Below are positions 1 through 18,784 of a stretch of DNA of 64,000 bases, in pieces. The notes under the pieces were generated by a model, which made no database searches, was not told the DNA's origin, and saw only the letters and a list, made by a program, of their open reading frames with translations. The stretch spans positions 320,001 through 384,000 of the forward strand of contig CAWDDT010000006.1 in NCBI GenBank assembly GCA_963801165.1, in the 5' to 3' direction. The translations under genes were made by a program, and so were the position numbers. Numbering within the stretch: the first letter of the stretch is position 1; the number at the start of each line of letters is the position of its first letter. The stretch is from an uncultured bacterium. Lineage in GTDB: Bacteria > Actinomycetota > Acidimicrobiia > Spongiisociales > UBA5794.

Positions 1-254
1 CCTCGCATGACGTGAACTGTCCACTCCCACCACATCCCGGCTGGGACGAGCACACCGATCGATCCGGCCTTTCCGTTGGCCAGGGATTGAGCTCTGGCGG
101 CGGGAACGTAGCCCAGCTCATCCATCGCAAGACGGATGCGCTCGACGGTGCCGGCGCCTAGCTCCCCCTTGCCGTTCAAGACTCGCGACACGCTTGTCTT
201 CGACACCCCGGCCTGCCGCGCTACGTCGGCCATCGTCGCTCGGCGAACAGTCAT
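1..254 (-). CDS. LacI-family transcriptional regulator (5' part only; runs off the window start)
   Basis: Manual translation from ATG 254: MTVRRATMADVARQAGVSKTSVSRVLNG...LGYVPAARAQSLANGKAGSIGVLV is a LacI HTH plus hinge. GGGAGG RBS upstream. Not in the ORF track because it is truncated. Confidence 0.9.
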   Translation of the reverse strand, partial: MTVRRATMADVARQAGVSKTSVSRVLNGKGELGAGTVERIRLAMDELGYVPAARAQSLANGKAGSIGVLVPAGMWWEWTVHVMR

Positions 255-282
255 TCGGTCCAAACCTCCCAATGGGAAATGC

Positions 283-347
283 GCAACCGGTTCCGCAACC
301 GGTTCCGTAAGCGGTTCCAAAGTACCAATCCTGGGACCATCCGTCAA
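283..347 (-). promoter_or_regulatory. Sigma70-type promoter of the LacI gene with three tandem operator-like 12-mers
   Basis: Minus strand reads TTGACG (342-347) - 17 nt - TACTTT (319-324). GCAACCGGTTCC x2 plus GTAAGCGGTTCC lie at 283-318, directly downstream of the -10 box. Confidence 0.7.
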
Positions 348-416
348 GGGAGGAGCGCCGCCAGCAAAGAAGCCGGGGCGGCCAATGGGCGGGATGCACC
401 GGCGTACCGGTGTCGC

Positions 417-1388: not shown

Positions 1389-1595
1389 CGGTGTTCTCGA
1401 CGCGGTGCGACCGGCAACACCCGCGGCCACACCGCGGAGCCGCTGTCCGGCCGCATAGTTGTTGTCGTCACGCAGATCACAGGAGCGAACAGTAGCGGGA
1501 GCCTCCGCTAGCTTGGCTTCACGTCCGCCGCAGTTCTGGCGATCAGTTTGACGAACGTCCCGATTTGTGGCCCGGCCCATGTCGTCTCCTGATCG

Positions 1596-2255
1596 TCACC
1601 CGCTTCGTGAGTTCTTGGGATGGAGGTGGTAGCGGAGGTGGGTGACGAGTGGCGAGTGAATCGCCTCCGCGATCTCGATTCCGATTCGATTGGTGTCGAG
1701 GCCGTCGAGTAGCGGTGTGCCGCCACCGAACACCACGGGCGCCAGGTCGATAGCCAGCTCGTCGACTAGACCGGCGTTGAGATACTGGACGATGACGTTG
1801 GCTCCTCCCGAGATCCGGATGTCGTCTTCGCCCGCCACCTCACGTGCCTGCTCGAGGGCACCCTCTATCCCATCGTTGACGAAGTGGAAGGTCGTGCCGC
1901 CGGGACGGACCCAGGGCTCGCGGACCGCGTGGGTGAGCACGAACACCGGCGTGTGGAAGGGCGCCTCCTCGGGCCACATCGCTTCGCCCAACTCGAACAT
2001 CCGCTTGCCCATGATGCTCACACCGGTGCGCTCGAACGTCCTGCGCACGATGTCGTTGTCCTCCCCGGTCTCCCCACCCTCACCAAGCCCCAGGCGTTGT
2101 TGGAAGTACTCCTGCTGCAACAGCCAGTTCTGCATCTGAGACCACTTCTCCGCCCAACCCAGATGCTCGGGATCGAAGGCATGATCGACATCCATCCCCT
2201 CCGGCGCCATGTAGCCGTCGAGGGTCATACCTACGCTGACAAAGACCTTGCTCAC
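1596..2255 (-). CDS. Dihydrofolate reductase-like (RibD C-terminal) family protein
   Basis: MTLDGY, IMGKRMF, PVFVLTH, ISGGANVIVQYLNAGLVDEL, PVVFGGGTPL. Confidence 0.85.
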   Translation of the reverse strand: MSKVFVSVGMTLDGYMAPEGMDVDHAFDPEHLGWAEKWSQMQNWLLQQEYFQQRLGLGEGGETGEDNDIVRRTFERTGVSIMGKRMFELGEAMWPEEAPFHTPVFVLTHAVREPWVRPGGTTFHFVNDGIEGALEQAREVAGEDDIRISGGANVIVQYLNAGLVDELAIDLAPVVFGGGTPLLDGLDTNRIGIEIAEAIHSPLVTHLRYHLHPKNSRSG

Positions 2256-2722
2256 GATTTGCCCCTGTTTCTTTCAACATGGGCAGCAAGGCGAGACAGC
2301 GTCTGCTCGGCGCCCTCGATGGCGTGGAAACGCTCTACGGCGCGATCCCGCAGCTCCTTGGTCTTGAACACCGAGCGGAGGGTGACCTCGCAGTCACCGA
2401 CCTGCTCGTCAAAGGTCACCGTTGAGACGAAGGCGTCGGGATCGTCCCTCCTCGACCCGTGACGCATGACGATCCGCTCCGGCAGTGAGATCTCGAGGTA
2501 CTCGACGTGATTCGGATAGTCGGTGCCATCGGGACCATGCATCGTGTAGTCCCACACACCACCGGGCCGGAACTCGAACGCATGTGTCGTCGTCGAGAAC
2601 CCTGTTGGCCCAAACCACTTCGACAGATGACGGACCTCGCTGAACGCCTCGAAGACGAGATCCCTCGGCGCCTCGATCGTCCTCGAGACGACGACCTCCC
2701 GATCCTTCTCCTCATCCGTCAT
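2252..2722 (-). CDS. SRPBCC/AHSA1 (START-like) domain protein
   Basis: SRTIEAPRDLVFEAFS...WFGP...FRPGGVW...MHGPDG. Confidence 0.85.
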   Translation of the reverse strand: MTDEEKDREVVVSRTIEAPRDLVFEAFSEVRHLSKWFGPTGFSTTTHAFEFRPGGVWDYTMHGPDGTDYPNHVEYLEISLPERIVMRHGSRRDDPDAFVSTVTFDEQVGDCEVTLRSVFKTKELRDRAVERFHAIEGAEQTLSRLAAHVERNRGKS

Positions 2723-3056
2723 CCTTCGTGCCCTCCTTCATCGTCTTTACGTATTCGTTGAGACGGTCGAAGCTCTCGTTCCAGAACTCCTCGAAACCGC
2801 CGGTCCATTCATGGATCTTGCGCAGCCCACCAGCATCCAACCCATACACACGTTGTTTGCCAACCTGGTGCACATGAACCAGGCCAACCTCTCTCAACAC
2901 GCGCAGGTGTTTCGAAGTGGCCGGTTGTCTGAGGCCGATCTCGTCGGCGACACCGCCAACTGAGAGCTCGCTGTGTTTGAGCACAGTGAGAATCCTCCGA
3001 CGCTGCGGCTCGGCAATTGCATTGAAGACATCAGAGGTAGTGGCGGCTCGTGCCAT
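2712..3056 (-). CDS. ArsR/SmtB-family transcriptional regulator
   Basis: DVFNAIAEPQRRRIL...QPATSKHLRVLREVGLV; first gene of an ArsR-SRPBCC-DHFR operon. Confidence 0.9.
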   Translation of the reverse strand: MARAATTSDVFNAIAEPQRRRILTVLKHSELSVGGVADEIGLRQPATSKHLRVLREVGLVHVHQVGKQRVYGLDAGGLRKIHEWTGGFEEFWNESFDRLNEYVKTMKEGTKDDG

Positions 3057-3063
3057 GAAGGCA

Positions 3064-3091
3064 AGCATATTCCTATATAGGCACGTGTCAA
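3064..3091 (-). promoter_or_regulatory. Promoter of the ArsR operon with a palindromic operator
   Basis: Minus strand reads TTGACA-16 nt-TATGCT, 7 nt before ATG 3056 (probably leaderless). Perfect palindrome CCTATATAGG at 3072-3081 in the spacer. Confidence 0.65.
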
Positions 3092-3297
3092 ACTCGGCGA
3101 AGACTGCCAGTGCAACGAGACATAGTCACAACCATCCCGGGCAACCGAGGGAGCGTTCGACTTCGACCTCTAGGGTGTGCTCGTGTTCCTCGGCTGTCAC
3201 GGCAACGGCCTGCGGATCCTGGATGTCGCAGACTGAATACGGGCGAGGAGACCGAGTACAACTTCAGGCGAACGCGTCAGACCGAATGTGCTCGCAG

Positions 3298-3723
3298 CTA
3301 TCCGCCCCGGCCACCATCGTCGAGGTCACTCCATACCTCCCCTTGCTGGTTGACATACCGTGCGTTGTGTGCGTCACGGAGTCGCCACAGTGGATAGAGC
3401 GGAGAACGCGAAGCGCGACAGGACTGCCAAACGAGATCGGTTGTCGCACCGGGCATCCTGGCCAGGCTTGTTGCCGTTTCCGCATTTATCGCGAGGTGCT
3501 CGCTGCCGCCTGGTAGTACCGCCCATTCGGCCACTTCCTTTGACGATGCGTCTACGGTCGCAACGCCCGTCCGTGATCCCTGCGGCCCAAAGACAACCAG
3601 GTAATAGTGCTTGCCAACCTTGTCGAGACGCTGGACTCGTACAACGTCCGCCCGCACGGACTCTTCGATCCCTATTCGGGCGCGAGCCAGCGATACCGCC
3701 TCAGCCGCCTCATCGGAAATCAA
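3298..3723 (-). CDS. Hypothetical protein, paralogous to the C-terminal domain of the upstream peptidase (tandem PepSY-like)
   Basis: Shares VQRLD..YYLV, LVW..CR.S.SP.YP and terminal GRG motifs with 3748-4965. Confidence 0.7.
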   Translation of the reverse strand: MISDEAAEAVSLARARIGIEESVRADVVRVQRLDKVGKHYYLVVFGPQGSRTGVATVDASSKEVAEWAVLPGGSEHLAINAETATSLARMPGATTDLVWQSCRASRSPLYPLWRLRDAHNARYVNQQGEVWSDLDDGGRGG

Positions 3724-3747
3724 GGACCCTTCGTCCTTCCCCTGTCG

Positions 3748-4965
3748 CTAGATCCCGCGTCCTGCCGGATGGAGTTGCGTAAAGACCGCGCCATCAACCC
3801 GAATGTACAGTCGGTGCCCGCCAATGGTCACCATGTGGAAGGGATAGAACGGGCTGAGCGATTCCCGGCAAGGCTTCCAAACAAGGGTTGGGTACAAGCA
3901 ATACGCGTCGGGCCGGACCCGCACACGTCCCAGAGGTTCATCCAGGTCGAATACCCGGCCGGCGATCATTTCGACAGCTCGACGTGGATCGAGCATCTCG
4001 AATACCGTCTGTGCTCGAGACAATGCCCCGGTCTCCCGGTAGTCGCCGAAGCGTCCGTCCACACTGACGAAAGCGCTTGCCCGGTCGTTCGAAACCATCG
4101 GGACCAGGTAGTAGAACGTATCCGTGACATCAAGTCGCTGGACCAGGTGTGGCTGCGACGGCTCTGTTCCTTCGAGGATCCGACCCCAATCCTCGCGACG
4201 GCGCAGCCCGTATTGCTCGAGCCCGCGGATGGCGAGCTCAATGGCTTCCCCGCCATCCAGAAGCCGCTCTCCAGACAGCCGCTCTGGACGCGGGGCCTGG
4301 TCTCCCAGCCGTTGTGCCGGCGGATCCGGATCGCAAACGGCGACAAAGTCACCCTTCCAATGCCCGGAGGGGACGCCCGTCATATAGGTGGATTTCCAGG
4401 TTGCGTACGCGATGTGTTGGTTGTCGATGCCGTGATTCCCACCCGTTCCGCAGCCATCACCGCCCGAGTGCGGTGGTGGCGGTGGTGGAGGAGGAGCCGA
4501 TGGAGCGTACCAACTCGGACAAGGCGGCCACGGGTTGTTGACATCGAACGCCGTGATCGTGTAGCCCGTATCGGATGACGACGACGGTGCCGCGCTCGCG
4601 TCAAACCCTCGGATGACGATCCAGTGGTCCCACCCGAATACCAGAGCTGCTGGAGCAACTTGATAGTGGTGGATAGTCCATACGAGTTTGCGAGAGATGG
4701 TGTCCTCGGTGGAGGGTGAGTACGTGACGAACCAACCGCCGAAGCCGGCGGGTCGCCGGTCGTTGAGGGTCCATTGCAGGCCGTCGGGGGCGGTATACCA
4801 TGCCGACTCGATCGTGCTGTGGTTGTGATTGTCCGTATACAGGTCGTCTTGGTCGAGCAAGCCTGCGCCGATCGAGTCGAGAATCATCTGGGCGCATGCG
4901 GCACCGCAGTAGTAGTCGGTGTCTTGCTGGTGGTAGGCGACGGTCAGGTCTTCCTGGGTGGCCAT
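3748..4965 (-). CDS. Papain-like (C39-like) cysteine peptidase with a poly-Pro linker and C-terminal accessory domain
   Basis: YHQQDTDYYCGAACAQMIL (Gln, Cys), DHWIVIRGFD (His), VNNPW (Asn). GGAGG RBS before ATG 4965. No signal peptide evident. Confidence 0.75.
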   Translation of the reverse strand: MATQEDLTVAYHQQDTDYYCGAACAQMILDSIGAGLLDQDDLYTDNHNHSTIESAWYTAPDGLQWTLNDRRPAGFGGWFVTYSPSTEDTISRKLVWTIHHYQVAPAALVFGWDHWIVIRGFDASAAPSSSSDTGYTITAFDVNNPWPPCPSWYAPSAPPPPPPPPHSGGDGCGTGGNHGIDNQHIAYATWKSTYMTGVPSGHWKGDFVAVCDPDPPAQRLGDQAPRPERLSGERLLDGGEAIELAIRGLEQYGLRRREDWGRILEGTEPSQPHLVQRLDVTDTFYYLVPMVSNDRASAFVSVDGRFGDYRETGALSRAQTVFEMLDPRRAVEMIAGRVFDLDEPLGRVRVRPDAYCLYPTLVWKPCRESLSPFYPFHMVTIGGHRLYIRVDGAVFTQLHPAGRGI

Positions 4966-5220
4966 GATCTCCTCCGATCTGAAGCCATCCGTGGTGTAAC
5001 GACACGACAAGCAGCTCGCTATGCGACGCAGCCCTGACCACCGCACACACCCCGGCCCGGCGGGGCGGACCTGCGCACTCCACCGCGTCACACGTCAGCT
5101 CGGAAATCGCGCCGTCGACACCGCGCGAGTTACCCGTAATTATCCTCCGCGTAGCTGTGGACGGTCGCGGATGTTTTCGCGAGCTGGTTGACCACCACGG
5201 TTGGCACCGCCAGTGCCGAG

Positions 5221-5239
5221 ACCCGTGGCCTCTTGACCC
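5221..5239. repeat. Degenerate third copy of the tRNA-Pro att sequence
   Basis: ACCCGTGGCCTCTTGACCC matches 9786-9804 (ACCCGCGACCTCTTGACCC) at 17/19 positions, in the same orientation. Confidence 0.5.
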
Positions 5240-5411
5240 GAGCTGGAAAAGCGGGGATCCGAGGATACTGGGGAAATGTGCAACACATGCCCCTGGCCTC
5301 AGCGTTCTTCAGCCGGAAAACGCCATTCTCCAACCGCACGACCTCAGTTTTCCCCGGGAAGTGCCGTCTGTCCGCAACCCGGCGCACGTGTCGAGGCATC
5401 ACCGCTGAGGA

Positions 5412-5729
5412 TCAGAGTGGGTCGAGGCGGGCCTCGAGCAGACAGAACGTGTTGCCTTCGGGGTCGGCCAGGACATGCCCCCCCTCGTCCCCCGTCTAGC
5501 CGACATGGGCCGGACGAGCACCGAGTTCGAGAAGGCGTTCGCGTTCAGCGTCCTGATCGCGGTGGGTGGCGTTGACGTCGATATGCAGCCGGGACTTCCC
5601 CTTCTCCGGCTCATCCCTGCGACTGAGGATGATCGTCGGCTGCGGACCGCCGAACCCTGCGCGCGGCCCGATCTCGAGCGTGCCGTCGTCCAGGCGATCG
5701 AGCACGAGCTCACTGATACGACATACCAT
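5412..5729 (-). pseudogene. VOC/glyoxalase-family pseudogene
   Basis: MVCRISELVL...KSRLHIDV...ERLLELGA...HVG*TGDEGGHVLADPEGNTFCLL. In-frame TAG at 5496-5498, and the N-terminal helix segment appears lost. Confidence 0.8.
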
Positions 5730-6045
5730 TAACGAAACCGCCCTCGGCCTCGGAACTGCCGGTGAGGCCACACGCGTACCTCACGCCCCCAGCACCGTAA
5801 ACAATCCCGCGATCGTACCGGACGAGGAGACCACGGGAGAAGTGATTTCCGGGCTGCCCATGGTGACACGAACCGCCTCCGGACCGCTAGGGCGCGACGT
5901 GACGGCGGATGGTGGTTCTACTGGGCGACAATCGGCTGGGGGCGGGGTTCGGGCAGAACATGGTGGCGTCCTCAAAGATCGACCCACCAACGGTTGTGAC
6001 GCTGCGGCAGAACATGGTCTTGTCGCGAAGGAGATACGGAAGTTC

Positions 6046-7431
6046 TTAGGCCTTCACCCGCTCGATCGAGCGGTCCGCACGCAGCACAACGAGCCGTGCC
6101 GCCGCTGACGGCGTGAAGCGCTCGCTGGCAAAGACAACCGCCTCTCGTTTCGTCGCAAATACTCGCTTCGAGATCGCCTTCCCGCGCACTCGATGCACCT
6201 GCCAGCCGCCCGCTGCTCTCGGCTCGACTGTGTCGGTGAGCGACTTCGTGTCGGGGAATGCGTATAGACCCGGCCGACGCGGCAACCATTCGAGATGAGC
6301 GCGATCTGCCGGGATACCCGGCGTAGCTGCGGCGTCGGGTGTCAGCGGCGACGTGGCCCAGAATGTTGTGAACGGCTGCGTCCAGTCGACGGCCTCTGCG
6401 TACGACATCACGGTGCTCCGAGCCGAGTCGATGGCAGCGTCTGTCGACTGACGCCCCAGGAAGTGGAGCCCCTGACGTAGCATGCGCAGCCCCACCGTGA
6501 GCAGCGGTGGACCGAGATTGGCGGCCCGTACCAGTGAGTCGGCAGCCGCCTCCAGGTCACGTTGTTGCGGGTCCCAGAGCATCTGCAAACCGTGGATGAT
6601 GGCGGCATCGGGCAGATAGCTTTTCCAGTTCTCGAAATTGCCGGGCCAGTAATGGAGCCGCCCGTACTCCCCTGCCTTGAGCAGGTAATAGCCTCCGATG
6701 GCCGCGCCCGTAGGATCCGCGAGCTTCTCGAACAACAGACGCTCCGCGGCAACCATTCGACCGGTCTCGACCTCGCCCCGGCTCAGATACCGAAGCACCG
6801 AATCAACCTGGCGGTCGTGTTTGGACGCGAGGTCCGAGGCAATCGATACGCTCACGGCCATTCCTCGCCCGTCCGTAGCCATAGGGGCGACCGGCCGGAT
6901 AGCGATCGAGGCTAGCGATTCAGCCGGGAGGACAGAGACACGTGGCGTGGCCGCTGGTGATCCGATAAGCACGTAGTTCATGCCGCGCGGCAGGAGGTCT
7001 TTGAAGGTGATCTTCCAGGAGATCAGGTCCGACTCGCTGTAGCTGGCGGGCCACGGCTGCGGGTTCGCCCCCCATAGCTGAACCCAGGGTGTCTCTGCTG
7101 CGCTCCGGCGGTGGCTCCGGTACCGTTCCGGGGCGGGCGCTTGCCCGGCGGCCGTCTCCCAACTCAGCCACTCGTGCTGCGACGGCGGCGCTGGGATGTC
7201 GACCTCCCCTTCGCTCGAGGCAGCCACCTGGATCAGACGTCCCCCCGGGAATCTGGCCCGCACCACGTGTCGCTCGCCGGTTACCTCGACACCGGTCACA
7301 TCGCCTACCTGTAGCGACCTTTCTATGAGCAGCTCACCCGAGTCCGCATCGATGATCTCGGCAGTCAGGAGAGCCCCGTCGAGCCGGTTGCCGCCCGTGG
7401 TGTTGATGACCCTGATGTCGAGATGAGTCAT
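6046..7431 (-). CDS. Caspase-associated hypothetical protein with a C-terminal DUF2188-like domain
   Basis: ATGA overlap with the caspase stop. Core LLFEKLADPTGAAIGGYYLL...WPGNFENWKSYLPDAAIIHG. Tail GGWQVHR...FATKREAV...LVVLRADRSI resembles DUF2188. Confidence 0.7.
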   Translation of the reverse strand: MTHLDIRVINTTGGNRLDGALLTAEIIDADSGELLIERSLQVGDVTGVEVTGERHVVRARFPGGRLIQVAASSEGEVDIPAPPSQHEWLSWETAAGQAPAPERYRSHRRSAAETPWVQLWGANPQPWPASYSESDLISWKITFKDLLPRGMNYVLIGSPAATPRVSVLPAESLASIAIRPVAPMATDGRGMAVSVSIASDLASKHDRQVDSVLRYLSRGEVETGRMVAAERLLFEKLADPTGAAIGGYYLLKAGEYGRLHYWPGNFENWKSYLPDAAIIHGLQMLWDPQQRDLEAAADSLVRAANLGPPLLTVGLRMLRQGLHFLGRQSTDAAIDSARSTVMSYAEAVDWTQPFTTFWATSPLTPDAAATPGIPADRAHLEWLPRRPGLYAFPDTKSLTDTVEPRAAGGWQVHRVRGKAISKRVFATKREAVVFASERFTPSAAARLVVLRADRSIERVKA

Positions 7432-8558
7432 TCCTCGAGCTCCCATGCGATCTCGGGGTGAGGTGGCTGCGGATTCACCGTCGCTTCATAGGGACGCCAT
7501 CGCCGTGAGAACGTCGCCCGGCCTTGGTACTCCTTGACGGGGAGGCGTATGTGCCACGGTTCAGCACCGTCGAGTCGATGCGCGACGGGTTGACCGGCCC
7601 CCGCCTCGAAGATCGACAGCTCGACACCATCGGTCTCGTGGCCCGGGACGAGCATGATCGTCACAGGGATATCACCAGGACTGTCGGTGCAGTGAATGAG
7701 CGATTCGCGCCGTCCTCCTTCCGGCTGCGAGGTCTGTCGCGGGGCGCCCTCGTGCGCCTGCGCGTATGACATCGCCGCTTCCACACCTTCGGCGAGGTGG
7801 GAGGTGGAGACCCACCACGCACCGCGTCTCGGCCGGCATCCCATCCCCCGGAACGACGCAAGGATCGCTTGGGTAAACGCAGCCACACCCGCTACCTGTC
7901 CATAGGCCGGGTCGGTGGGCAACGTGGCGTAGAGACCGAAGGAATCAACGGCCAGATTCTGGTCAGCCAGCCAATCCGGGATCACCTCCCCGAGTTCGTT
8001 GCCGACCCGAAGAGATTCGAGGGAGACCTGACGACAGGCATCCGCAAAGAAACACTGGATCTTCGCCCGACAAGATGTAGCCATCGCCACGCGGGAGTCG
8101 TCGAAGTTGATTGCATTAGCGAATGGCTGACTGTCCGGGTCGCCGAAATCGGCGACGAGTAGTCCCAGGTGACCTCTCATCAGCCCGTGGCCGCAGAAGT
8201 AGAACATGGCGACGTTGTCTTCATTGCGGTTGCAGCGATCCACCCATTGCCGGAAAGCCGGCCGCAACTCTTCCATGGTTGGTCGTCCGATCCGTTTTGC
8301 CCGGGCCGAGCCGGGGGGTCGGAATCTGCGCGTCGGCGAGACGAGTAAGTCCAGGCTGCCCAGCGGTGCCTCGGAGTTCGTTAGCTCATCCCGGAGAAAG
8401 GTGGCAAACGCCAGTGCGGATTCGGGTGGAGAACTGAGTTTGGCAGTCAGGTTGAGGCCGGCCACGCGAGGGTCATCGATGTAGTCGTATTCGCCGACGC
8501 CGACAACGAGCGCGTGGGTGCGGGGCTCGGCCGATCCGTCGTCGTACAGCGCAGTCAT
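7428..8558 (-). CDS. Caspase-family (peptidase C14) protein
   Basis: HALVVGVGEY, FYFCGHG (His), FFADACR (Cys), FTQAIL. ATGA overlaps on both sides. Confidence 0.9.
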   Translation of the reverse strand: MTALYDDGSAEPRTHALVVGVGEYDYIDDPRVAGLNLTAKLSSPPESALAFATFLRDELTNSEAPLGSLDLLVSPTRRFRPPGSARAKRIGRPTMEELRPAFRQWVDRCNRNEDNVAMFYFCGHGLMRGHLGLLVADFGDPDSQPFANAINFDDSRVAMATSCRAKIQCFFADACRQVSLESLRVGNELGEVIPDWLADQNLAVDSFGLYATLPTDPAYGQVAGVAAFTQAILASFRGMGCRPRRGAWWVSTSHLAEGVEAAMSYAQAHEGAPRQTSQPEGGRRESLIHCTDSPGDIPVTIMLVPGHETDGVELSIFEAGAGQPVAHRLDGAEPWHIRLPVKEYQGRATFSRRWRPYEATVNPQPPHPEIAWELEE

Positions 8559-9643
8559 GCGAGATCGATCACGATGCCGGGGCTCGCGGCTTCGGGGTAG
8601 CTAACCGTGTAGCGATGCCGTTCCATGAGGTGCGGATCATCCCAGACGTCGTTGAATCGAGTCCGGTAGTTGAACAGGAGCTGGGGTCCCGATTCAGGGC
8701 GTTGTCCGCATGCGATCACCCGCGCCACGGCTTCTCTGTCCGGATGCCGGTAGTACGCGCCATTGCTGGAGAAGATGAACCGAGGACACGACACTTGCTC
8801 GACCATTCTTCTCGACACATTCTTCTTACTGCCGTGATGCGGCAGTTTGAAGGCGTCGAGCTCGAGCCGCTCCGATTCTCGCAGCGCCAACAGCCGGCCG
8901 AGAGAGTCCTCTAGAACGTCGGCGTGAGCATCACCGGCGAGCAGAACCGCGACCTCCTGACCATTGTCGGTGTATTCGGCGAGGAGGGCGATGGTCGTGC
9001 CGTTAGCGACGCTGCGATCCGGTGCGAAGGGTGCATCCTTCAATGCATCGAAGTCGAACGAGCCGAACGTCTCCCATCCCGGTAGCTCCTCCGGCACCGA
9101 CGCCGGCACCTCGGGGTCCAAGCCGGCTTCACGCACCACCCTGCTCCACCCCGGCCGGAGGGCGGCGAGCTGCGCCCGGCCCGGGGAGAGCACCGTCATA
9201 CGGAGCCCTCCCGCCAGTTTGCGCGACACCGGTGCCCCTAGGTCCGCGACGGCGATCGCCGGACCGAAGGGTCGGCTCCCGTTCCAGGTTTGGTTGCGAT
9301 CGAGGATTGCCTTGGTGAGTCGTTCGCCTGCGATCGGCCCGAACACCTCGTGCTCTTCCGACAGATGCGGGAATCCGTTGAACCAGATGTCGTCGATTGC
9401 CAGGTTGGTGTCGTTCTCGAGCAAGGTGACGATCCCATCGATGTGGTCCGCATCTATATGGGTCACCACAACGAGATCCACCCGGCGATCGCCCACGGGT
9501 AGGTCCTCGAGGCATCGGAAGACGCTCTCGCTCGTATCTGACGTACCGCCGTCGACGAGGATTCGATGGGGAGCGGCCGGATCGCCGTAGACGATCCAAA
9601 GCGCGTCACCCTGACTCGCCGGCAGCGCGCTGAGACGGAACAC
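8555..9643 (-). CDS. MBL-fold metallo-hydrolase (ComEC/Rec2-like, Avs1a-like)
   Basis: QGDALWI, ILVDGG, VTHIDADHIDG, LLAGDA, KLPHHGS, SSNG...HPD. Confidence 0.9.
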   Translation of the reverse strand: MFRLSALPASQGDALWIVYGDPAAPHRILVDGGTSDTSESVFRCLEDLPVGDRRVDLVVVTHIDADHIDGIVTLLENDTNLAIDDIWFNGFPHLSEEHEVFGPIAGERLTKAILDRNQTWNGSRPFGPAIAVADLGAPVSRKLAGGLRMTVLSPGRAQLAALRPGWSRVVREAGLDPEVPASVPEELPGWETFGSFDFDALKDAPFAPDRSVANGTTIALLAEYTDNGQEVAVLLAGDAHADVLEDSLGRLLALRESERLELDAFKLPHHGSKKNVSRRMVEQVSCPRFIFSSNGAYYRHPDREAVARVIACGQRPESGPQLLFNYRTRFNDVWDDPHLMERHRYTVSYPEAASPGIVIDLA

Positions 9644-9764
9644 CTACGCACCTCCCCCCGATCGCTGGTTGACATCCTTCACCCGATCTTCGCCCATCCT
9701 ACCCGGCTGGATCCGAACCGGTCAGTACCCGCAGACGGCTCTCGCCGAGATTCGACTCGTCCGT

Positions 9765-9812
9765 TCGTCGGCTGACCGGGTTTGAACCCGCGACCTCTTG
9801 ACCCCCAGTCAA
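9765..9812 (-). repeat. Displaced, partly degenerate 3' half of tRNA-Pro (att junction)
   Basis: The 23-bp GCGACCTCTTGACCCCCAGTCAA (9790-9812) is identical to 18734-18756. The T-arm/acceptor part carries three substitutions and a 1-nt deletion. Confidence 0.9.
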
Positions 9813-9937
9813 CGAGGGACCTTGACGGATGGTGTCGAGCAATGATGAGTTGCCAGCGAAAACCCGGTGTGACCAGGGATTACGGTGCCAGGTCGTGCTC
9901 GGTGATTCCACTGCGTGTTACCTGGTTCTCCAGTCGA

Positions 9938-9956
9938 TAGGCGCCAGATAGGCGCC
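9938..9956. repeat. Putative integrase arm-type sites (left end)
   Basis: TAGGCGCC x2 with an 11-bp period (9938, 9949); same motif and spacing at 18629/18640. Confidence 0.65.
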
Positions 9957-10294
9957 AGCGCCGGCCCCGGCCTCGAGAAGTCACGCTATCCTCGCTGCAG
10001 TTGAACCCACACGACCTCCCTCGGGGCGGCGGGCTGCATGACGGATTCAAGGTGCTTCGAGCCGTGCCCACCGGGGAGCAGGAGGCGACGGAAGACCCTG
10101 TGATGCGCAGGGAGGTCACCCTTTCCGACGTCGACTCTTGTCTTGGCGTAGATCGTGTCGTTCCTCGTCTCATCGTGACCCAAGTGCCCGGCGACCGGCG
10201 CTCGTACCTCTGACGCACCGGTGGGGCGGTCGGTCGATCTGTGCAGTGCTCGGCACCTTCGCCATCTACGCGCCTCCGGCGAATCTTCAGGGCT

Positions 10295-11014
10295 TCAGGC
10301 TGGATTGCAGGGGTCGTCCCCGGCATTCATGATGGGCGCATCCTCGTTCAGCTGCTGCAGCTGAACGAGCGCGCGGACGCCGGGCCCTTCTGGAGCGTTT
10401 TCGGTTGAGAGCCGGATCCAGAGACTGGCGTCGTCGAGGGGTAGCGCGAGGTTGGGCTGTACGTGAGTGAGACGCCCGGTGGCGCCTGTCGTGACGTTTG
10501 AGAGCGACCCGAGGGGTACCTGATCCTGCCCGCTGCAGGTACCGAGTTCGATCGCGACTTGCGTAGCGGGAGCAGAATCTCGGACGGTGAGCAGCAACCA
10601 GACTACCGGATCGATTGCGGCTGGTTCGTCAACGACTACGAACGTAAGTGTGGCCGACAAGCCGTTCGCCGCCGGCAGGTCGTAGGTTGCAGCGGCCGTT
10701 GGGCCGGAGAACTGGCGGGCATCCGACGCCAGCTCCTCATTCCGAGCCTTCATCGCTTCCAGAGCGGTTTCAACACGTTCGAGCTCCGCCTGCGCTACGT
10801 CCCTGTCCGCCTCGACAGAAGAGACAGCTGCTCGGAGCTGAGCGATCTCTTGACTCGCCAGCTCCGGTCCGTCCGCTAAGGCTCCACGAGCCCCGTTCGA
10901 CCCGGCCGACTGGAGCACCCACCCGGCCGTGAGGCCGAGAGCGAAGACGAGCGCAAACAATCCAAGCCGAGAAATCCACCGCATAGCGCGCGGCCGTCCT
11001 GAGCTGCCGTTCAT
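10295..11014 (-). CDS. Exported/membrane-anchored hypothetical protein with a coiled coil and a two-Cys C-terminal domain
   Basis: ATG 11014 overlaps the upstream stop (ATGA). Hydrophobic segment LGLFALVFALGLTAGWVL, heptad region, then GTCS and DPC. Confidence 0.65.
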   Translation of the reverse strand: MNGSSGRPRAMRWISRLGLFALVFALGLTAGWVLQSAGSNGARGALADGPELASQEIAQLRAAVSSVEADRDVAQAELERVETALEAMKARNEELASDARQFSGPTAAATYDLPAANGLSATLTFVVVDEPAAIDPVVWLLLTVRDSAPATQVAIELGTCSGQDQVPLGSLSNVTTGATGRLTHVQPNLALPLDDASLWIRLSTENAPEGPGVRALVQLQQLNEDAPIMNAGDDPCNPA

Positions 11015-11649
11015 TGCGGAGTGGCTCTTGTTAGCGATGCTGCAATCATGGCAGCCCCGGCAAGTCCCCCGGCGATTCGCCACGTGGCCCGCCACCATTG
11101 CGACAGCAGTTGTTCGACGGCGCGTTCCAGGCCGGGATGACCTGACGGAGCGACAGCTCCCAACCAGAATGCGAACGCTCGGCCCGCGCCGAAAGCGAGC
11201 CCTGCTTCCAGGCCGTGGCCGTTGAGAGCAGCGACGATCAAGGCAACCCACAGCAAGGACGACGAGACGACCGTCCACCAGCCCAGGCCCAAGAGAAACC
11301 CAAAGAGAGGGACCCCGACAATGCGACGCTGAGCGGTATGCCGCCAAACCTGGTGACGTCGCGGGGAGAACACGCGCGGGCGACCTGTCAATGACGTCGC
11401 GAGAACGAACCCACCCAGCAATGTGAGGGCAACGCGATAGGTGGAGCCGTCAGTAGCCACGTCCGGGACCAGCCTGTCCAGGGTCGCGAAGGAGGCAACG
11501 GCGCCGGTCATTGCGCCGAGCGTGAAGAGAACCGATCGAGTGATTCGCGTACCTGGTCGACCGACCTGACCGCCGCAGATGGCGTTGATCCCTCAGCCGG
11601 TCGCCGTCATAGCTACCGCTGCCAACAGAGCAAGTACCACGCTCGCCAC
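11011..11649 (-). CDS. MauF/CcdA-like membrane redox protein, candidate selenoprotein (in-frame TGA at codon 19)
   Basis: GGGAGG RBS plus GTG 11649: MASVVLALLAAVAMTATG*GINAICGGQ...FTLGAMTGA is in frame with ORF 11011-11511. Later motifs RRHQV, FGFLLGLGWWTVVSS and FGAGRA are MauF-like. Confidence 0.65.
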
Positions 11650-11671
11650 GGAACCTCCCTTCATCAAACCG

Positions 11672-12127
11672 CTAGCAGGCACTTAGAACCCTGGCGCAGA
11701 TGCACCTCACGCCGGCGTCGTTGTCACAATCGCAGCAGATGGTGGTCCGACACGGTGATTGGGTTGTACAGACCCAGCAGCTCATGCCCGAGCCCCAGCT
11801 GTTGGGCTTCGTGCAAGGCGAGTTGCAGGAACTCCCTGAGCAACTGCAGCCATTGGTGCTGCATCCGGTGCCACAGCAAGGCGATGGCCCACAATACTGG
11901 GGACAGCATCCACCTGTCGGTGAACCACAGCTCGCCGCAGTGGCTGACGCGGGGCGGAACAGCGCGCCGTGCGCAAGTGTGTAGGCAAGTCCGTAGAAGG
12001 CTGCATCCGCGGCGCGCCTGAGGAATCGTCGCCGATCCATCGCACCCGCCACACGGGTCGCGGCCGCCACCGCCTTAGGGTGGTCTTCATGCCCGGGATG
12101 TGGCGATGATCGTCCATGGTGTCGCAT
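11672..12127 (-). CDS. Tat-exported cysteine-rich peptide (20 Cys in ~87-aa predicted mature part)
   Basis: DRRRFLR twin-arginine motif, h-region, ASATA cleavage site, then SCGSPTGGCCPQYC...SCWVC...CCDC...RCIC...SAC. ATG 12127 follows the upstream stop by 1 nt. Confidence 0.8.
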   Translation of the reverse strand: MRHHGRSSPHPGHEDHPKAVAAATRVAGAMDRRRFLRRAADAAFYGLAYTLAHGALFRPASATAASCGSPTGGCCPQYCGPSPCCGTGCSTNGCSCSGSSCNSPCTKPNSWGSGMSCWVCTTQSPCRTTICCDCDNDAGVRCICARVLSAC

Positions 12128-12128
12128 T

Positions 12129-12725
12129 TCAGCCCCCGTCCTCGCCACGACCCTGAAGGACTCGGTTCGTCGGTCGTGGCGAAGGTGACACCGCTGACCA
12201 AGCCAGAGCCTCGAGATCCTCTATTGAGTTGACCAACGACTTGGCAATGACCGTTCCCGTTTCGTCGATCACGTGTACGAACGGCGTGCCCCGGATGTCA
12301 AGGGAATCGAACACCTCCGCATCAACGACACCGGCAACAAGCTTCGTGGCCGGGAGTTCGCCGGTCACAGTGTCGTCGTCTTGGCGCTGCAACCACACGA
12401 ACTCGAGACTCTCGTTCCATCCTGCAATGAAGGAGTCCAGATCAGGAAGGAGGGCCTGGCATATTGGGCAATCTGGCAGTGAGAATATCGCGATGACGGA
12501 CCGCTTGTTTGCCGACCCGTTCCATTCGAGTCGATGCTCGCGCCCGTTGCTAGTGAAACTGATCGGTGGGGCCTTGGTTCCAATCGCGATCCCTCCGAGG
12601 TTCACCCGTCCTCGGCCGCCGAGATACACGAGACCAATCTGCCGGTACAGCAATAGAAGCGCCACACTCGAGAAGACGGCAATGAACCACAGCAGGCCAT
12701 ACGAGAGCCAGAACAGATCGCTCAT
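12129..12725 (-). CDS. MauD-like membrane-anchored thioredoxin-fold protein
   Basis: N-terminal TM followed by LLYRQIG, IGTKAPP, FSLPDCPICQAL (CxxC), and GTPFVHVID. Confidence 0.8.
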   Translation of the reverse strand: MSDLFWLSYGLLWFIAVFSSVALLLLYRQIGLVYLGGRGRVNLGGIAIGTKAPPISFTSNGREHRLEWNGSANKRSVIAIFSLPDCPICQALLPDLDSFIAGWNESLEFVWLQRQDDDTVTGELPATKLVAGVVDAEVFDSLDIRGTPFVHVIDETGTVIAKSLVNSIEDLEALAWSAVSPSPRPTNRVLQGRGEDGG

Positions 12726-13252
12726 GGCGCCGACCTCAACTGGAGGCCGAGCTCTTCGAGCACGTTAGGTACGGCAACGACCAGGACAGAACCGAGCAGG
12801 GCCAGCATGTAGAGGAGCGCCCCTTCCGCCGCGCCCAGCCTGCCGAACATCATCGGTGACGGCATTGCCCAGATCACACCGGCCCCGGCGATCAACACGG
12901 CGTTTCGAACGAGAGCAAGGTTGCCCGTTCTAAGGTGCCCTATGCCGCAGCCGCAGGCCGAGGCTACCCCCGCCCGAACATTGGCCGCGATGGCCGCCGT
13001 GAACCCAGCGAGCGTGCCGCCAGCGAGCACGGCCCCAGCTACTCCAGGGATCGACGGCATCAAGAGAAAGGTGGCAGCCAACAGCTCCAGAAAGGGAATC
13101 CCATATGAGACTATCTTGCGAAAACGCGAACGACGCATCAGCCAGACATATCCGGAGAGGGCACGAACAAATTCGTCGCGTGACCGCAGCTTCGCGATGA
13201 AGGAGAGAAGAAAGACGAACCCAAGTGTGAGTCGGATCCATTCGACGTACAC
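12722..13252 (-). CDS. MauE/DoxX-family membrane protein
   Basis: VFLLSFIAKL...F...GY...ELLAA...FTAAI...CGCG...LVRN. AAGGAGG RBS before GTG 13252. Confidence 0.85.
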   Translation of the reverse strand: MYVEWIRLTLGFVFLLSFIAKLRSRDEFVRALSGYVWLMRRSRFRKIVSYGIPFLELLAATFLLMPSIPGVAGAVLAGGTLAGFTAAIAANVRAGVASACGCGIGHLRTGNLALVRNAVLIAGAGVIWAMPSPMMFGRLGAAEGALLYMLALLGSVLVVAVPNVLEELGLQLRSAP

Positions 13253-13378
13253 AATCTCCCTCCTTCTGGACAACGATACACACGCATAGCCCAGAATGGG
13301 GGAGCCGCGCAAGAAATCCCTCCTGATCCGGTGGTCGAAGCGCCGTGCCCGGGTCGCAAAGCGTCGTCCTTCCGCATG

Positions 13379-16120
13379 TCATCGGGCGGTGCTACGGGTG
13401 CTGTCTCGGTTTCGGGTGCGTTCGGCGTTGTGGCGTTGTCTGGCGGCTTCGATGCTCTGGTTGATCTTCTGACAGATCTCGTGGTCGTCGTCGGAGCCGT
13501 GAGCTGGCTTGTCGACGTCGTGGTCGGGTGGGTGCGTCCCGGCTTGCAGCTCGACTCCGAGCGAGGAGGTCAACACCCTGCCGGCTTCGAGGCGTGTTCG
13601 TTGGGCGATGGCGGGTTGGTCGATCCAGTGCCGGACCGCGGCTTGGGTAAGCACGTCGGCTGCTGTCTCGCCGTCGTTGGTGACGACGTAGGCGTGGTTG
13701 GAGGTTCGGCCCCGTGTCAGCGGCGTGTAGAGGCCGCGGCTGTCGGTGGGGCCGTCGACGAGGAGGAGCCCGGTGTCGACGGTGCGGCCTTGGGTGGCGT
13801 GGCTCGTCTGCGCGTAGCCCAGCTCGAGGTCCTCGGCGGCGTAGTCGGCGGGTAGACGAACCCTGCCAGCCCTACCGGCGACGGTGACGGCGCCGTCGGG
13901 GTGGATGGCTTCTATGGTCCAGTGGTCCCGGTTCTTCACCATGACGCCGCGGTCGGTGCGTAGGGTGCGCTGGTTGTGGCGGGTGACGACTTCGTCGCCG
14001 ACAAGCAGCCGCTGGCGGCCGAGGCCGAGGGCAGGCCCGTTCGGGTCGAGCTCACCGGTGGCAATGCGTCGTTGTTGGGTTAGCTGGTTGAGACAGTGGA
14101 CGGTGTGGTTGGTGTTGGCCATCAACGCTACCGACTCGCCCCGCCGCCGCGCCTCATGCCAGGCGTCGACGATGGCTGTCTCCATGGCGTTGGGGGTGCC
14201 GTCGTGGAGGCGACCGTGACGCTCATACTCCGCCAAGACGGAGGCATCTCCAGTACGAATTCGCCGGGTGGCGTCGGCTTCCCATTGGTGGGTGAAGCGG
14301 TGGATGTGGTCGAGTTCGACAGCTCCGTGGGTGTCGATGAGGCGGGCGAACATGCCGCCCCGACCGACGGCGGAGAACTGGCGAGGGTCACCCACCATCA
14401 CCACCCGCCATCGTTCCACGTCGGCGAGACAGGTGAGGGCGGCGAGTTTTGGTGTTGAGACGGTGCCGGCCTCATCGACGATCACCGTCGAGCCCCGCGG
14501 GAGATCGTATGGCGGTTGTGGTGGTCGGTCGGGCCGGGCGTGTTCGTAGAGGAGCTTGTCGAGGGTGTCGGCTGGCATGGTGGTTTCTGTGGCGAGCACC
14601 TCGGCGGCTGCTGCGGTGGGTGCCACCCCGAACACCGTCTGACCGCGGTCTTGTAGGTAGGTGACGGCTGGGGTGAGGGCGGTGGTCTTGCCGGATCCGG
14701 CGGGTCCGACGATCAGCTCCAACGGTGCCCCACCGGATGCCGCCCGGCACGCTTCGGCTTGACCCGCGCTCAGACCCTGCGTGTCTAGGCCCCGGGGTCG
14801 GGTGTTGATGATGTCGGCGAAGCGGCGCTGGCGTTGAGCCCACTCCACGATCCGTTCCTCCTCCTCGAGAATGGCGTGGGTGGTGAGGGCCCGGTCGAAG
14901 GCAGCTTCGCTGATCGGGCGCCCATCACGGCGCAACACAGCACCAGACGGCACTGGTGGGGACAGATCGACACAGCGGTTAGCGGCGACGTGGTTGGCGA
15001 GGTCCTGCAAGAAGCTGCTCAGACGATCCGGTTCGACCGTGATACTGGTGGGGACCTGGGCGGCGAGCTCACGGACCAGTTCGGCGGGACGCCACGTCGA
15101 CTGCCGCTCTGCCAACGCCCCTAACGCCGCCTCCACCATTCCGGCCATTGTCGCCTGGTCGATGCCGGTCGCCTCGCGGACACGACCCACCACGGCGGCG
15201 ACGAGGTGGTGTGGTTCGTAGCTGAGGGCTTGCAACCTGCTGCGCCACCCGGCGTGCAACTCGCCGGCTGTGTGACCGTGCGTTTTGGCGGGGCGACTAT
15301 CCAGCACAGCTTCTCGTTCCAGGCGCCACCGTTCCCGTGGTGTCGGCTCCCGCCCGAGGTCGCTACGGAACCGGTCCAGTTTCTCGTCGACACGCGTCTC
15401 GATGTCGCGGCTGCGTTGGGAGAACTCGGCCAGCACCCCCGCATCGACACCGACCATCTCAGAGATCCCATTCACTGGAGGCTGCCAGCGGACTCCGAGG
15501 CGGCGGGTCAGCTCGGCCCGCAACCCGGCGTGATACAACCCCGACAGGGTCCGCTGATCCATCTTCAACGTGCGGGCATCGAGCGCCAACCACCGTCCAT
15601 CCGGAGAGCGGACTCGGTTGGCGATCACCGCATGGGTATGCAGCTGCGGGTCGAGGCGACGGCTGGTGTGCTGACGGAATACCCCCACCACGATTCCTTC
15701 GGCGTCGACACACACCACATGACCCCGCCGCCGCAACCGAGTGTGCGCCTGCGACTCGATCCAGTCGAGCACTGCGTCGACGGCCCGGTCATGCGCCTCC
15801 GTCACCTGCGCTCGCAGTTGTTGGTCGCCGATGGCGAACAGCACCGACACCGACTTCGGCGCCGAAAACGTCGCATCGAACCCCCGCACCGAACCGTCGC
15901 CGAAGCGGCGGCCCAACCGCTCACCGCTCATCGGAGCCAGTCCGGCCATCACCGCCAAGAACGCTTCATCATCGACTTGCCCTCCGAGACCGAGCATCCG
16001 GGCGCCGTGTCCGAACCAGCGACCCGGCGGCTCACCGCTGTCGAGGTAGTACGACGGGAGCTGCTCGGTGTAGTAGCGACCAGCCTCGGTGCCCTTCAAC
16101 GTCGTCACCCGCACCGTCAC
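13379..16120 (-). CDS. MOB-F (TrwC-like) relaxase-helicase
   Basis: N-terminal RYY...SYY, DATFSAPKSVS, HTSRRLDPQLHTH (3H motif), GPAGSGKT, DEAG, GYAQTSHATQG. Confidence 0.95.
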   Translation of the reverse strand: MTVRVTTLKGTEAGRYYTEQLPSYYLDSGEPPGRWFGHGARMLGLGGQVDDEAFLAVMAGLAPMSGERLGRRFGDGSVRGFDATFSAPKSVSVLFAIGDQQLRAQVTEAHDRAVDAVLDWIESQAHTRLRRRGHVVCVDAEGIVVGVFRQHTSRRLDPQLHTHAVIANRVRSPDGRWLALDARTLKMDQRTLSGLYHAGLRAELTRRLGVRWQPPVNGISEMVGVDAGVLAEFSQRSRDIETRVDEKLDRFRSDLGREPTPRERWRLEREAVLDSRPAKTHGHTAGELHAGWRSRLQALSYEPHHLVAAVVGRVREATGIDQATMAGMVEAALGALAERQSTWRPAELVRELAAQVPTSITVEPDRLSSFLQDLANHVAANRCVDLSPPVPSGAVLRRDGRPISEAAFDRALTTHAILEEEERIVEWAQRQRRFADIINTRPRGLDTQGLSAGQAEACRAASGGAPLELIVGPAGSGKTTALTPAVTYLQDRGQTVFGVAPTAAAAEVLATETTMPADTLDKLLYEHARPDRPPQPPYDLPRGSTVIVDEAGTVSTPKLAALTCLADVERWRVVMVGDPRQFSAVGRGGMFARLIDTHGAVELDHIHRFTHQWEADATRRIRTGDASVLAEYERHGRLHDGTPNAMETAIVDAWHEARRRGESVALMANTNHTVHCLNQLTQQRRIATGELDPNGPALGLGRQRLLVGDEVVTRHNQRTLRTDRGVMVKNRDHWTIEAIHPDGAVTVAGRAGRVRLPADYAAEDLELGYAQTSHATQGRTVDTGLLLVDGPTDSRGLYTPLTRGRTSNHAYVVTNDGETAADVLTQAAVRHWIDQPAIAQRTRLEAGRVLTSSLGVELQAGTHPPDHDVDKPAHGSDDDHEICQKINQSIEAARQRHNAERTRNRDSTRSTAR

Positions 16121-16204
16121 AGTGCCACCTCCACCCTGTCACCGCAGGTGTGCACTCGTCTGTCCTCGAATCGCCGCGGGTGGGTACACATGGGATCTCC
16201 GTCC

Positions 16205-16600
16205 TCAGGTGGAGCTGGGCTGCGAGTCGAAGAGGTCGAGCTGATCTGCGATACGGTCCCGGCGTTTTCGAGTCGGCCTTGTCGTCGGTGAGCGCTGAGC
16301 CGGTGGTTCTTCGGCCAACTCGCTCGGGCGTGGTTTCGGTGGTTCGGCCGGCAGTACGGCTTCCCTGGTCTCTTCGATCCGGCCGGGGCTGTCGAAGTAG
16401 GCGAGTTCAGCACCGATCAGATCCTCGAGCGCCCGCCGTGGCACCCGCAACACATGACCCAGATCGATCACCGGCAGACCCGACCGTCCATCGGTCTCCC
16501 GCCACTCCCTCGCCATTGCATACGCCTTGGTCCGCCCGATCCGCAGCAGCACGCCAGCTTCCTCCACGGTCAGAAGAACCGGGACCGTCTCACCAGACAC
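16205..16600 (-). CDS. Excisionase-like HTH protein
   Basis: LLTVEEAGVLLRIGRTKAY...LPVIDLGHVLRVPRRALE. Confidence 0.85.
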   Translation of the reverse strand: MSGETVPVLLTVEEAGVLLRIGRTKAYAMAREWRETDGRSGLPVIDLGHVLRVPRRALEDLIGAELAYFDSPGRIEETREAVLPAEPPKPRPSELAEEPPAQRSPTTRPTRKRRDRIADQLDLFDSQPSST

Positions 16601-16697
16601 AACCTGCCACCTTTGATCTCACTGCCTACTCCTTGTATCATACACAGAGTTTCAGCGCACTACCACCACAAGTCACAAGTTGTGTATGCTTTTGGTG
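16601..16697. promoter_or_regulatory. Divergent xis/repressor control region
   Basis: AT-richer gap containing the palindrome TGTATCATACA, the repeat CACAAGT x2, and a TATGCT -10 box 7 nt before ATG 16698. Confidence 0.5.
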
Positions 16698-17435: not shown

Positions 17436-17469
17436 GAGGCCACCCCCTTACGAATAAGGAAGACAACAC

Positions 17470-18642: not shown

Positions 18643-18647
18643 GCGCC
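18629..18647. repeat. Putative integrase arm-type sites (right end)
   Basis: TAGGCGCC x2 with an 11-bp period. Confidence 0.65.
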
Positions 18648-18682
18648 CAACACCTACCGCCGAGGCCACCCCTTACGTGAGT

Positions 18683-18704
18683 AACCCCCTGTTACCAGGG
18701 GGTT
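18683..18704. terminator. Hairpin between the convergent integrase and tRNA
   Basis: AACCCCCTG-TTAC-CAGGGGGTT, a perfect 9-bp stem. Confidence 0.6.
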
Positions 18705-18710
18705 TGCTCG

Positions 18711-18784
18711 TCGGGCTGGCCGGATTTGAACCGGCGACCTCTTGACCCCCAGTCAAGCGCGCTGCCAAGCTGCGCCACAGCCCG
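18711..18784 (-). tRNA. tRNA-Pro (GGG)
   Basis: CGGGCTG/CAGCCCG acceptor stem, CTTGA-CTGGGGG-TCAAG anticodon arm, GCCGG-TTCAAAT-CCGGC T arm. CCA is not encoded. Confidence 0.97.

Follow-up and report, generated by a model that had tools for sequence, protein, structure and literature searches.

A caspase operon of probable Canu type with the nuclease gene first in an uncultured acidimicrobial genome

The three-gene operon at positions 6046-9643 of a 64,000-nucleotide (nt) stretch of DNA from an uncultured bacterium of the Acidimicrobiia (assembly GCA_963801165.1, contig CAWDDT010000006.1, positions 320,001 to 384,000; the whole stretch is hereafter termed the window) very probably constitutes a Canu-type abortive-infection or anti-phage system, in which the gene order is permuted to nuclease, caspase and CanB-like protein. 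Read along the minus strand, the operon encodes a metallo-β-lactamase (MBL) fold protein, a caspase and a 461-residue protein, referred to here as the third protein (Table 1). Both junctions are ATGA overlaps, as an earlier note on this DNA had described (8555-8558 and 7428-7431): direct reading gives gcATGAct at 8558-8555 for the MBL stop and caspase start, and gaATGAct at 7431-7428 for the caspase stop and third-gene start. The open reading frame (ORF) of the third gene was listed as 6046..7446 (466 residues); the ATG at 7431, which yields the 461-residue form starting with MTHL, is favoured because the starts of homologues coincide with it. Promoter and terminator scans revealed nothing above shuffled sequences, and an Rfam scan of 4900-10000 gave no matches.

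Canu (caspase-nuclease) loci were described in a bioRxiv preprint of July 2025 and in Science in November 2025 (Tuck et al., PMC12799240). In the available portions of that report, MBL nucleases of this family are presented as “gated” proenzymes whose active site is blocked by two insertions until a partner protease excises them. Cleavage of HamM occurs after I118 and I218; for Avs1a, I134K and I234K are the cut-site mutants. The CanA protein of the Klebsiella aerogenes system, KaeCanABC, is a MALT1-like caspase with an immunoglobulin (Ig)-like C-terminal fold, and CanB, whose function is unknown, co-purifies with it. CanAB cleaves the gated pro-nuclease CanC, which contains a conserved glycine in each of its two insertions, to generate a DNase. 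KaeCanABC defends E. coli against T4, which requires both active sites as well as the two predicted cut sites, and escape mutations map to dda. Canu loci are characterized there as “variable in organization”, with tetratricopeptide repeat (TPR) and Ig-like folds, and as enriched in defence islands; in the largest clade the nuclease lies downstream of the caspase (PMC12799240). Literature searches identified no further paper on caspase-MBL systems, and ‘Y4kD’ retrieved unrelated papers alone.

Compared with this partly available account, the window operon presents several similarities. It comprises three genes; its caspase has an intact His-Cys dyad and a MALT1-like fold followed by a C-terminal β domain; its ComEC-like MBL displays complete metal motifs and an extra central region bearing two conserved Gly motifs; its third protein consists of protein-interaction folds (Ig-like and TPR-like); and the locus is accessory and lies beside a mobile element. 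The proposal of the earlier note that the operon is a new defence or conflict system is thus withdrawn, as it matches Canu, which was named and published in 2025. The order of events envisaged in that note, with the third protein as an adaptor or sensor that activates the caspase, which then unleashes the MBL nuclease, is essentially the mechanism demonstrated for KaeCanABC (PMC12799240). A first guess made from sequence only had rediscovered a defence principle published in 2025, and the window copy is a Canu variant with the nuclease first.

The caspase translation contains FCGHG and DACR, which carry His124 and Cys175, respectively, and these two residues are invariant in 48/48 aligned homologues. 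The Pfam family Peptidase_C14 was recognized with an expect value (E) of 1.4e-8. An AlphaFold2 model (predicted local distance difference test (pLDDT) of 93.1 and predicted template modelling (TM) score (pTM) of 0.92) shows residues 278-373 to be all-β, in agreement with the β-rich tail, and with the intact dyad, reported earlier. Structural similarity search using Foldseek revealed that the closest homologs of the model are MALT1 chains comprising the caspase and Ig3 domains (PDB codes 7paw_B, E of 1.1e-10, and 3uo8_B, E of 1.4e-10); the ten best matches are all of this type (E of 1e-10 to 1e-9), with metacaspases and caspases following. The match to MALT1 (PDB codes 3uo8, 4i1p and 7paw; E of 1e-10) spans the caspase and the following Ig-like domain, and comparison with the caspase-only chain 3v4o_A gave a TM score of 0.74. 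A profile of the caspase family searched against PDB sequences gave 12 matches, ten to MALT1 (E of 0.006-0.013) and two to metacaspase-9. Differences from MALT1 include a sequence identity of ~12%, the absence of death and N-terminal Ig domains from the window caspase, and a substrate motif that probably contains Gly, not Arg. MALT1 itself cleaves with Arg specificity.

Just after the strand bearing the catalytic His, the caspases display a conserved LLA-[ED]-D-F-G stretch at residues 133-137 (window ~8148-8162), which fits E.FG in 18/48 sequences and reads ADFG in the window caspase. Its resemblance to the putative substrate motif described below would fit a role as pseudo-substrate or in autoprocessing; the stretch could also have a purely structural role.

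The MBL translation contains the THIDADH and HHGS motifs that had been noted before, and the metal ligands H62, D64, D66, H67, D238, H269, H270 and H300 are invariant in 13/13 MBLs taken from triads and aligned. On sequence grounds the protein is a member of a defence-associated ComEC-like family. Pfam recognized the N-terminal part only (Lactamase_B, 1.2e-6), while end-to-end matches were obtained with the PADLOC models LmuA (1.1e-57), RTasMBL, associated with defence-associated reverse transcriptases (DRT) (1.2e-41), and Avs1a (1.4e-36). The expectation that PADLOC would yield no named match holds for complete systems, none of which was found, but fails for this single protein. NCBIfam gave Avs1a at 173 bits, far under the cut-off of 420, and 6A-MBL at 1.6e-13. 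The sole solved relatives by sequence are the ComEC nuclease domains (PDB codes 9ic4 and 30bt; E of 6e-7). In the alignment with ComEC, residues 6-75 and 232-292 of the MBL pair with 8-80 and 163-216 of the chain, leaving a central region of 156 residues compared with 82 in ComEC, i.e. ~74 extra residues.

Two E-x-F-G motifs, E99-V-F-G102 and E191-T-F-G194, were identified in this central region at homologous places in the MBLs, each adjoining length-variable acidic stretches. E99, F101 and G102 of the first motif are invariant in 13/13 MBLs, as is F193 of the second; the three MBLs that deviate present D-S-F-G or Q-S-F-G at the second place. At least two E.[FL]G motifs occur in 10/13 MBLs, against 0.59 such sequences on average, and never more than 3, in shuffles, a count that does not represent independent events because the MBLs are homologous to each other. 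The two motifs are 92 residues apart, a spacing that resembles the 100 residues separating the HamM and Avs1a sites. E-x-F-G is a concrete candidate cut-site motif.

The third protein gave no match in Pfam, NCBIfam or PADLOC apart from a weak one to DUF2188 (E of 0.035). Precomputed annotation and the ESM Atlas identify its core as PF27295, Y4kD_C, a newer Pfam family (release 38.1) named after an ORF of plasmid pNGR234a, and the protein can be assigned to this family on the basis of its sequence. The length of 461 residues given in the earlier note stands, and the protein is not an orphan. A phmmer search of 1.84 billion cluster representatives returned 1221 matches with E<=1e-3 and 544 with E<=1e-10, and the conserved core of the family comprises approximately residues 200-385. 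The predicted structure (pLDDT of 89.3, pTM of 0.87) has four parts: two β domains, the first an Ig-like sandwich, a TPR-like helical domain and a small C-terminal α/β domain (Table 1). The CanB-like component can thereby be placed in a family, Y4kD_C, which comprises at least 1221 clusters and combines Ig-like with TPR-like folds. The C-terminal end varies among relatives, with DUF2188 in 8/60, RAMA in 5/60, a LuxR-type helix-turn-helix (HTH) in P0203, Lsr2 in P0204 and pYEATS in one ESM Atlas cluster, which hints that this end is the sensing part. The swapped ends Lsr2, LuxR-type HTH, RAMA and pYEATS are nucleic-acid-associated, and such an end was also seen at L020:440-2068. Run-on ORFs, a hazard of high-GC sequence, may account for some of these fusions: the third-protein ORF of L013 continues into an Hsp70 gene and that of L007 into glyoxalase domains.

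This variety of C-terminal domains, in what is the least understood part of the operon, lends some appeal to the proposition that the third protein is the substrate of the caspase, as the earlier note had entertained, or even the real effector, with the MBL as an accessory. The proposition is exceedingly improbable. Pfam, NCBIfam, PADLOC and structure comparison revealed no catalytic domain in the third protein; E.[FL]G is not enriched in its family (60 sequences contain 20 occurrences, their shuffles 17.9 on average, and just 2/60 sequences have at least two); and in KaeCanABC, as described, CanB co-purifies with CanA and it is CanC that gets cleaved (PMC12799240). A third-protein substrate is disfavoured because it is the MBL, and not the third protein, that contains the conserved paired E-x-F-G motifs.

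The binding, exact cut sites, trigger and phenotype of the Canu-type system proposed for the window locus are what we infer. The Y4kD_C protein would bind the MALT1-like caspase as a regulator or infection sensor, and a phage cue would lead to activation of the caspase. The protease would then cut the MBL at the two E-x-F-G loops, near G102 and G194, which would keep the nuclease shut, and the opened ComEC-like nuclease would degrade DNA and stop the infected cell.

Linkage of the component families was explored by a pattern scan in which an alignment of four sequences was run against 185,579 species genomes and yielded 14 loci, from Gemmatimonadales, Arthrobacter, Mycolicibacterium, Aquimarina (5), Flavivirga, Flavobacterium (2), Ferruginibacter, Sphingobacteriales and Paraflavitalea. 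In phmmer searches of their ORFs, the gene immediately upstream of the third-protein homologue proved to encode a caspase homologue in 14/14 of these loci, and the one immediately downstream an MBL homologue in 11/14, which reproduces the CanA-B-C order. The exceptions are the Gemmatimonadales locus (L006), where no MBL is visible and the contig ends 148 nt after the third-protein gene, and the Arthrobacter (L007) and Mycolicibacterium (L013) loci, which are without an MBL. The caspase is likewise upstream in three metagenome and five plasmid loci, and partially in L003; the three metagenome loci are L020, L021 and L023, the other four of the seven being too short upstream. In total, the Y4kD_C protein stands between caspase and MBL in 14 canonical-order loci, namely the 11 genome loci, L003 (genome G296, same phylum), L038 (a Streptomyces plasmid, annotated caspase, hypothetical and MBL) and L039 (a Sinorhizobium americanum plasmid). 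In L026 and L035 (Agrobacterium pAt; 143-residue fragment) a third-protein homologue is placed directly before an MBL and no caspase is visible. The occurrence of a caspase gene directly upstream of the Y4kD_C gene wherever the flank is readable provides a handle on the least understood Canu part. On the Bradyrhizobium barranii plasmid pBb1S5b (L033, 2661-10247), an M12 metallopeptidase and a caspase precede a 1788-residue trypsin-like peptidase protein whose N-terminus is a Y4kD-like region, a multi-protease variant of the same core.

A different first gene was observed at six loci, where the gene directly upstream of the caspase belongs to an unannotated family of ~390-460 residues, termed X, that is unrelated to the MBL (Table 1). 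X proteins share 34-46% identity across genera, the two Sinorhizobium plasmid copies being 84% identical. There was no PADLOC match, and a single weak Pfam match, to Hydrolase_4 (1e-4), was obtained; literature searches on Y4kD and caspase-MBL systems found no paper on the family. The alignment nevertheless displays VFVHGV, GHSMGG and a conserved Asp and His, the signature of α/β-hydrolases, and from this sequence pattern X may be a caspase-gated lipase or esterase. It also contains E-x-[FL]-G twice (E77..G80 and E192..G195), the E and G being invariant and the motifs ~105-115 residues apart, paired as in the MBLs. The presence of the paired motif in an unrelated effector family beside the same caspase gives independent support to E-x-F-G as the mark of a caspase target. 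At the y4kD locus of pNGR234a the caspase and Y4kD_C families are those of the window (hidden Markov model E of 4e-59 and 3e-64) and the order is effector-first; in this locus and the other X triads the first gene is α/β-hydrolase-like (GHSMGG), not an MBL. These observations suggest that the caspase-Y4kD pair arms different pro-effectors.

In the caspase tree (IQ-TREE, 21 rows), the window caspase pairs with that of L006 (98/96), and the sister group of this pair consists of the X-type caspases from L007 and L021 (87/83). A branch supported at 98/95 separates this group from 11 Bacteroidota caspases of canonical Canu order. This separation and the high-GC host bacterium (60-68% G+C) are counted among the differences from the Canu prototype, KaeCanABC. 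The placement of the window caspase is unsure because of its long branch (1.62). The MBL tree (FastTree, 14 rows, rooted on the other MBL of the genome) places the window MBL as sister to eight Bacteroidota Canu MBLs (0.99), and the two trees thus conflict on the nearest relatives. The conflict would fit an effector swap into an effector-first locus, a lead drawn from few rows. A broader reading, judged slightly less likely than not, is that caspase and Y4kD_C form a portable sensor-protease core wider than the nuclease-centred Canu described so far, which would arm interchangeable locked pro-effectors through a common E-x-F-G cut-site code. The window operon would then be a recombinant of the MBL and X types, and the varied C-terminal domains of Y4kD_C proteins (DUF2188, Lsr2, LuxR-type HTH, RAMA and pYEATS) would possibly be sensing ends. 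An effector that varies in position and family around a constant caspase-sensor core is evidence for effector swapping, and extends the idea of a “nuclease-protease pair” to a possible caspase-lipase pair with a motif common to two unrelated effector families.

Several observations weigh against assigning the window operon to Canu. Its order, nuclease-caspase-B, differs from the caspase-B-nuclease order described for Canu, and was absent from all other loci examined. The third protein was detected in 0/60 relatives and, with a family profile, in 3/401 genomes of a phylum sample, the window's own included. The likeness to Canu is drawn from the published description of KaeCanA, KaeCanB and KaeCanC. 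Position and domain type are what point to the third protein as a putative CanB homologue, the caspase tail (278-373) is predicted to be Ig-like from a match judged only within the whole model, and it is the alignment that presents the motif-bearing MBL segments as putative loops blocking the active site.

The solitary order, the long branch of the caspase and the conflict between the trees could alternatively indicate an inactive remnant or a chance juxtaposition after recombination, in which the nuclease-first order reflects decay. This is very unlikely, since none of the three frames is broken, the genes are translationally coupled and the first is preceded by a Shine-Dalgarno sequence, all catalytic and metal-binding residues and both E-x-F-G motifs are retained, the models of the third protein and the caspase are confident (pLDDT of 89 and 93), and the sister X-caspase-Y4kD loci normally have the effector first.

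The same gated MBL family occurs in Hachiman HamMAB, AVAST type 1 Avs1a, Lamassu and DRT trypsin-MBL pairs (Tuck et al. 2025; Huang et al. bioRxiv 10.1101/2025.09.03.673762). In these, as far as the available portions of the reports describe them, the MBL is activated by two cuts ~100 residues apart at Ile cut sites, and the trypsin-like domain is fused to HamA, an Avs NTPase or LmuA. This contrasts with the stand-alone caspase and conserved Gly of the window, where no helicase, signal transduction ATPase with numerous domains (STAND NTPase), SMC or reverse transcriptase partner was found among the scanned neighbours. Nor did these include a gasdermin, cyclase or Cas gene, as the earlier note had stated. 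With their partner genes absent, other known systems were rejected: for AVAST type 1, the scanned neighbours include no STAND NTPase (Avs1b) with fused trypsin-like protease, and the Avs1a score is 173 bits against 420; Lamassu of the hydrolase-protease type has an LmuA match but no LmuB/SMC in the triad or in 13 neighbouring ORFs; and for the gasdermin, type III CRISPR and Thoeris IV caspase systems, no gasdermin, Cas/CARF or TIR partner was detected in neighbourhood Pfam and PADLOC scans.

Table 1. Coordinates of the operon, its predicted functional residues and domains, neighbouring features and X-family genes.
Feature	Position	Strand	Remarks
MBL gene	8555..9643	-	362 residues, GTG start; putative gated pro-nuclease, CanC-like
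Caspase gene	7428..8558	-	376 residues; CanA-like; C14 family with C-terminal β domain
Third gene	6046..7431	-	461 residues; Y4kD_C family; CanB-like by position
Shine-Dalgarno-like GGAGG	9651..9655	-	7 nt before MBL GTG start; direct sequence reading
First E-x-F-G motif, E99-V-F-G102	9338..9349	-	Central MBL region without ComEC counterpart; candidate caspase cut site
Second E-x-F-G motif, E191-T-F-G194	9062..9073	-	Acidic, length-variable segment; candidate second cut site
His124 codon	8187-8189	-	Caspase catalytic dyad
Cys175 codon	8034-8036	-	Caspase catalytic dyad
Ig-like β-sandwich	Third-protein residues 1-84		Model
Second β domain	Third-protein residues 116-196		Model
TPR-like helical domain	Third-protein residues ~200-350		Model
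Small C-terminal α/β domain	Third-protein residues 380-450		Model; weak DUF2188 match
tRNA-Pro(GGG)	18710..18784	-	ARAGORN; integration site of ~8.9-kb element
43-nt copy (93%) of tRNA-Pro 3' part	9770..9812	-	Distal att-like repeat, upstream of MBL start
Integrase	17470-18642		Beside tRNA-Pro
TrwC relaxase	13379-16120		
X family, L007 (Arthrobacter)	2730-3965		
X family, L013 (Mycolicibacterium)	3411-4802		
X family, L021 (metagenome contig)	1496-2671		
X family, L023 (metagenome contig)	3630-4805		
X family, L034 (S. meliloti pAK76)	2598-3788		Beside TrlF-like ATPase and restriction endonuclease
X family, L036 (pNGR234a, Sinorhizobium fredii)	1663-2967		

The operon lies next to an integrative mobilizable element (9770-18710) that contains an integrase, an HTH protein, a TrwC relaxase and MauE/redoxin genes. 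Since the operon begins 127 nt beyond the 43-nt attachment (att)-like repeat, the triad abuts this element but sits outside it. The region had been described in the earlier note as tRNA-anchored and accessory; it is accessory, but the triad is just outside the tRNA-Pro element and the tRNA is 9 kb away. In 14 same-genus genomes searched at the DNA level, nothing matched 6046-9643, and segments 5218-5307 and 18710-19998 proved conserved, lying ~13.5 kb apart on one contig in G005. Conserved flanks around triad DNA unmatched in these genomes place the triad in a variable hot spot, with the 5218-5307 segment marking the edge of the genus-variable region.

This setting bears on a reading in which the same parts serve a non-phage role: the triad could stabilise the adjacent mobile island or make the cell addicted to it, or could bring about regulated cell death or DNA processing for some other end. 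Compatible with such a role are the proximity of the triad to the att-like repeat of an integrase/relaxase element, the relation of the MBL family to the competence nuclease ComEC, and the relatives carried by Rhizobiales conjugative plasmids, 25/27 plasmid records that match the third protein being typed conjugative; a scan of viral contigs revealed no relative, an absence from phage that is uninformative on function. The triad is nevertheless outside the att-bounded element, relatives occur beside restriction and TrlF-like genes on pAK76, and KaeCanABC was shown to protect against T4 and canu loci to be enriched in defence islands, according to the accessible text (PMC12799240). A non-phage role is therefore judged unlikely and the Canu-type defence reading is retained. 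No enterobacterial record emerged when plasmids were searched by tblastn with the third protein or the caspase as query.

Several further features of the surroundings were recorded. A 19-nt tRNA-like repeat at 5221-5239 was considered as an att site and rejected, its 11-nt seed match being at about chance level. Neighbouring ORFs in 2917-6108 and 9880-12148 matched nothing in NCBIfam, PADLOC or Pfam. Four additional copies of the relaxase region 13372-17326, with 71-88% identity, are present in the genome (two on C13 and one each on C4 and C5), and same-genus genomes contain the region as well. Segment 5363-5862 is repeated at 78-88% identity 7 kb upstream on the same contig (G000:C6:312895-313414) and is present in G003; by eye, its minus strand resembles a VOC/glyoxalase-type domain with a stop inside it. 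At 21752-21797, the end of an ArsP-type permease ORF, a 15-16-nt unit (ATCTCATTCTGTAATA) is present in three tandem copies. The genome also encodes a second MBL of the same family on the minus strand at G000:C13:258922-262675 (L032, 8922-12675), with a PADLOC LmuA match of 1.1e-58, 34% identity to that of the window and Gly (GVLG and RYG) at the two positions that correspond to the cut sites. It is directly downstream of the gene for an 898-residue protein without a Pfam or PADLOC match, and a patatin-like gene is found nearby. The C-terminus of the 898-residue protein contains LLFGCNTAN, which we take to recall CHAT or caspase-like proteases.

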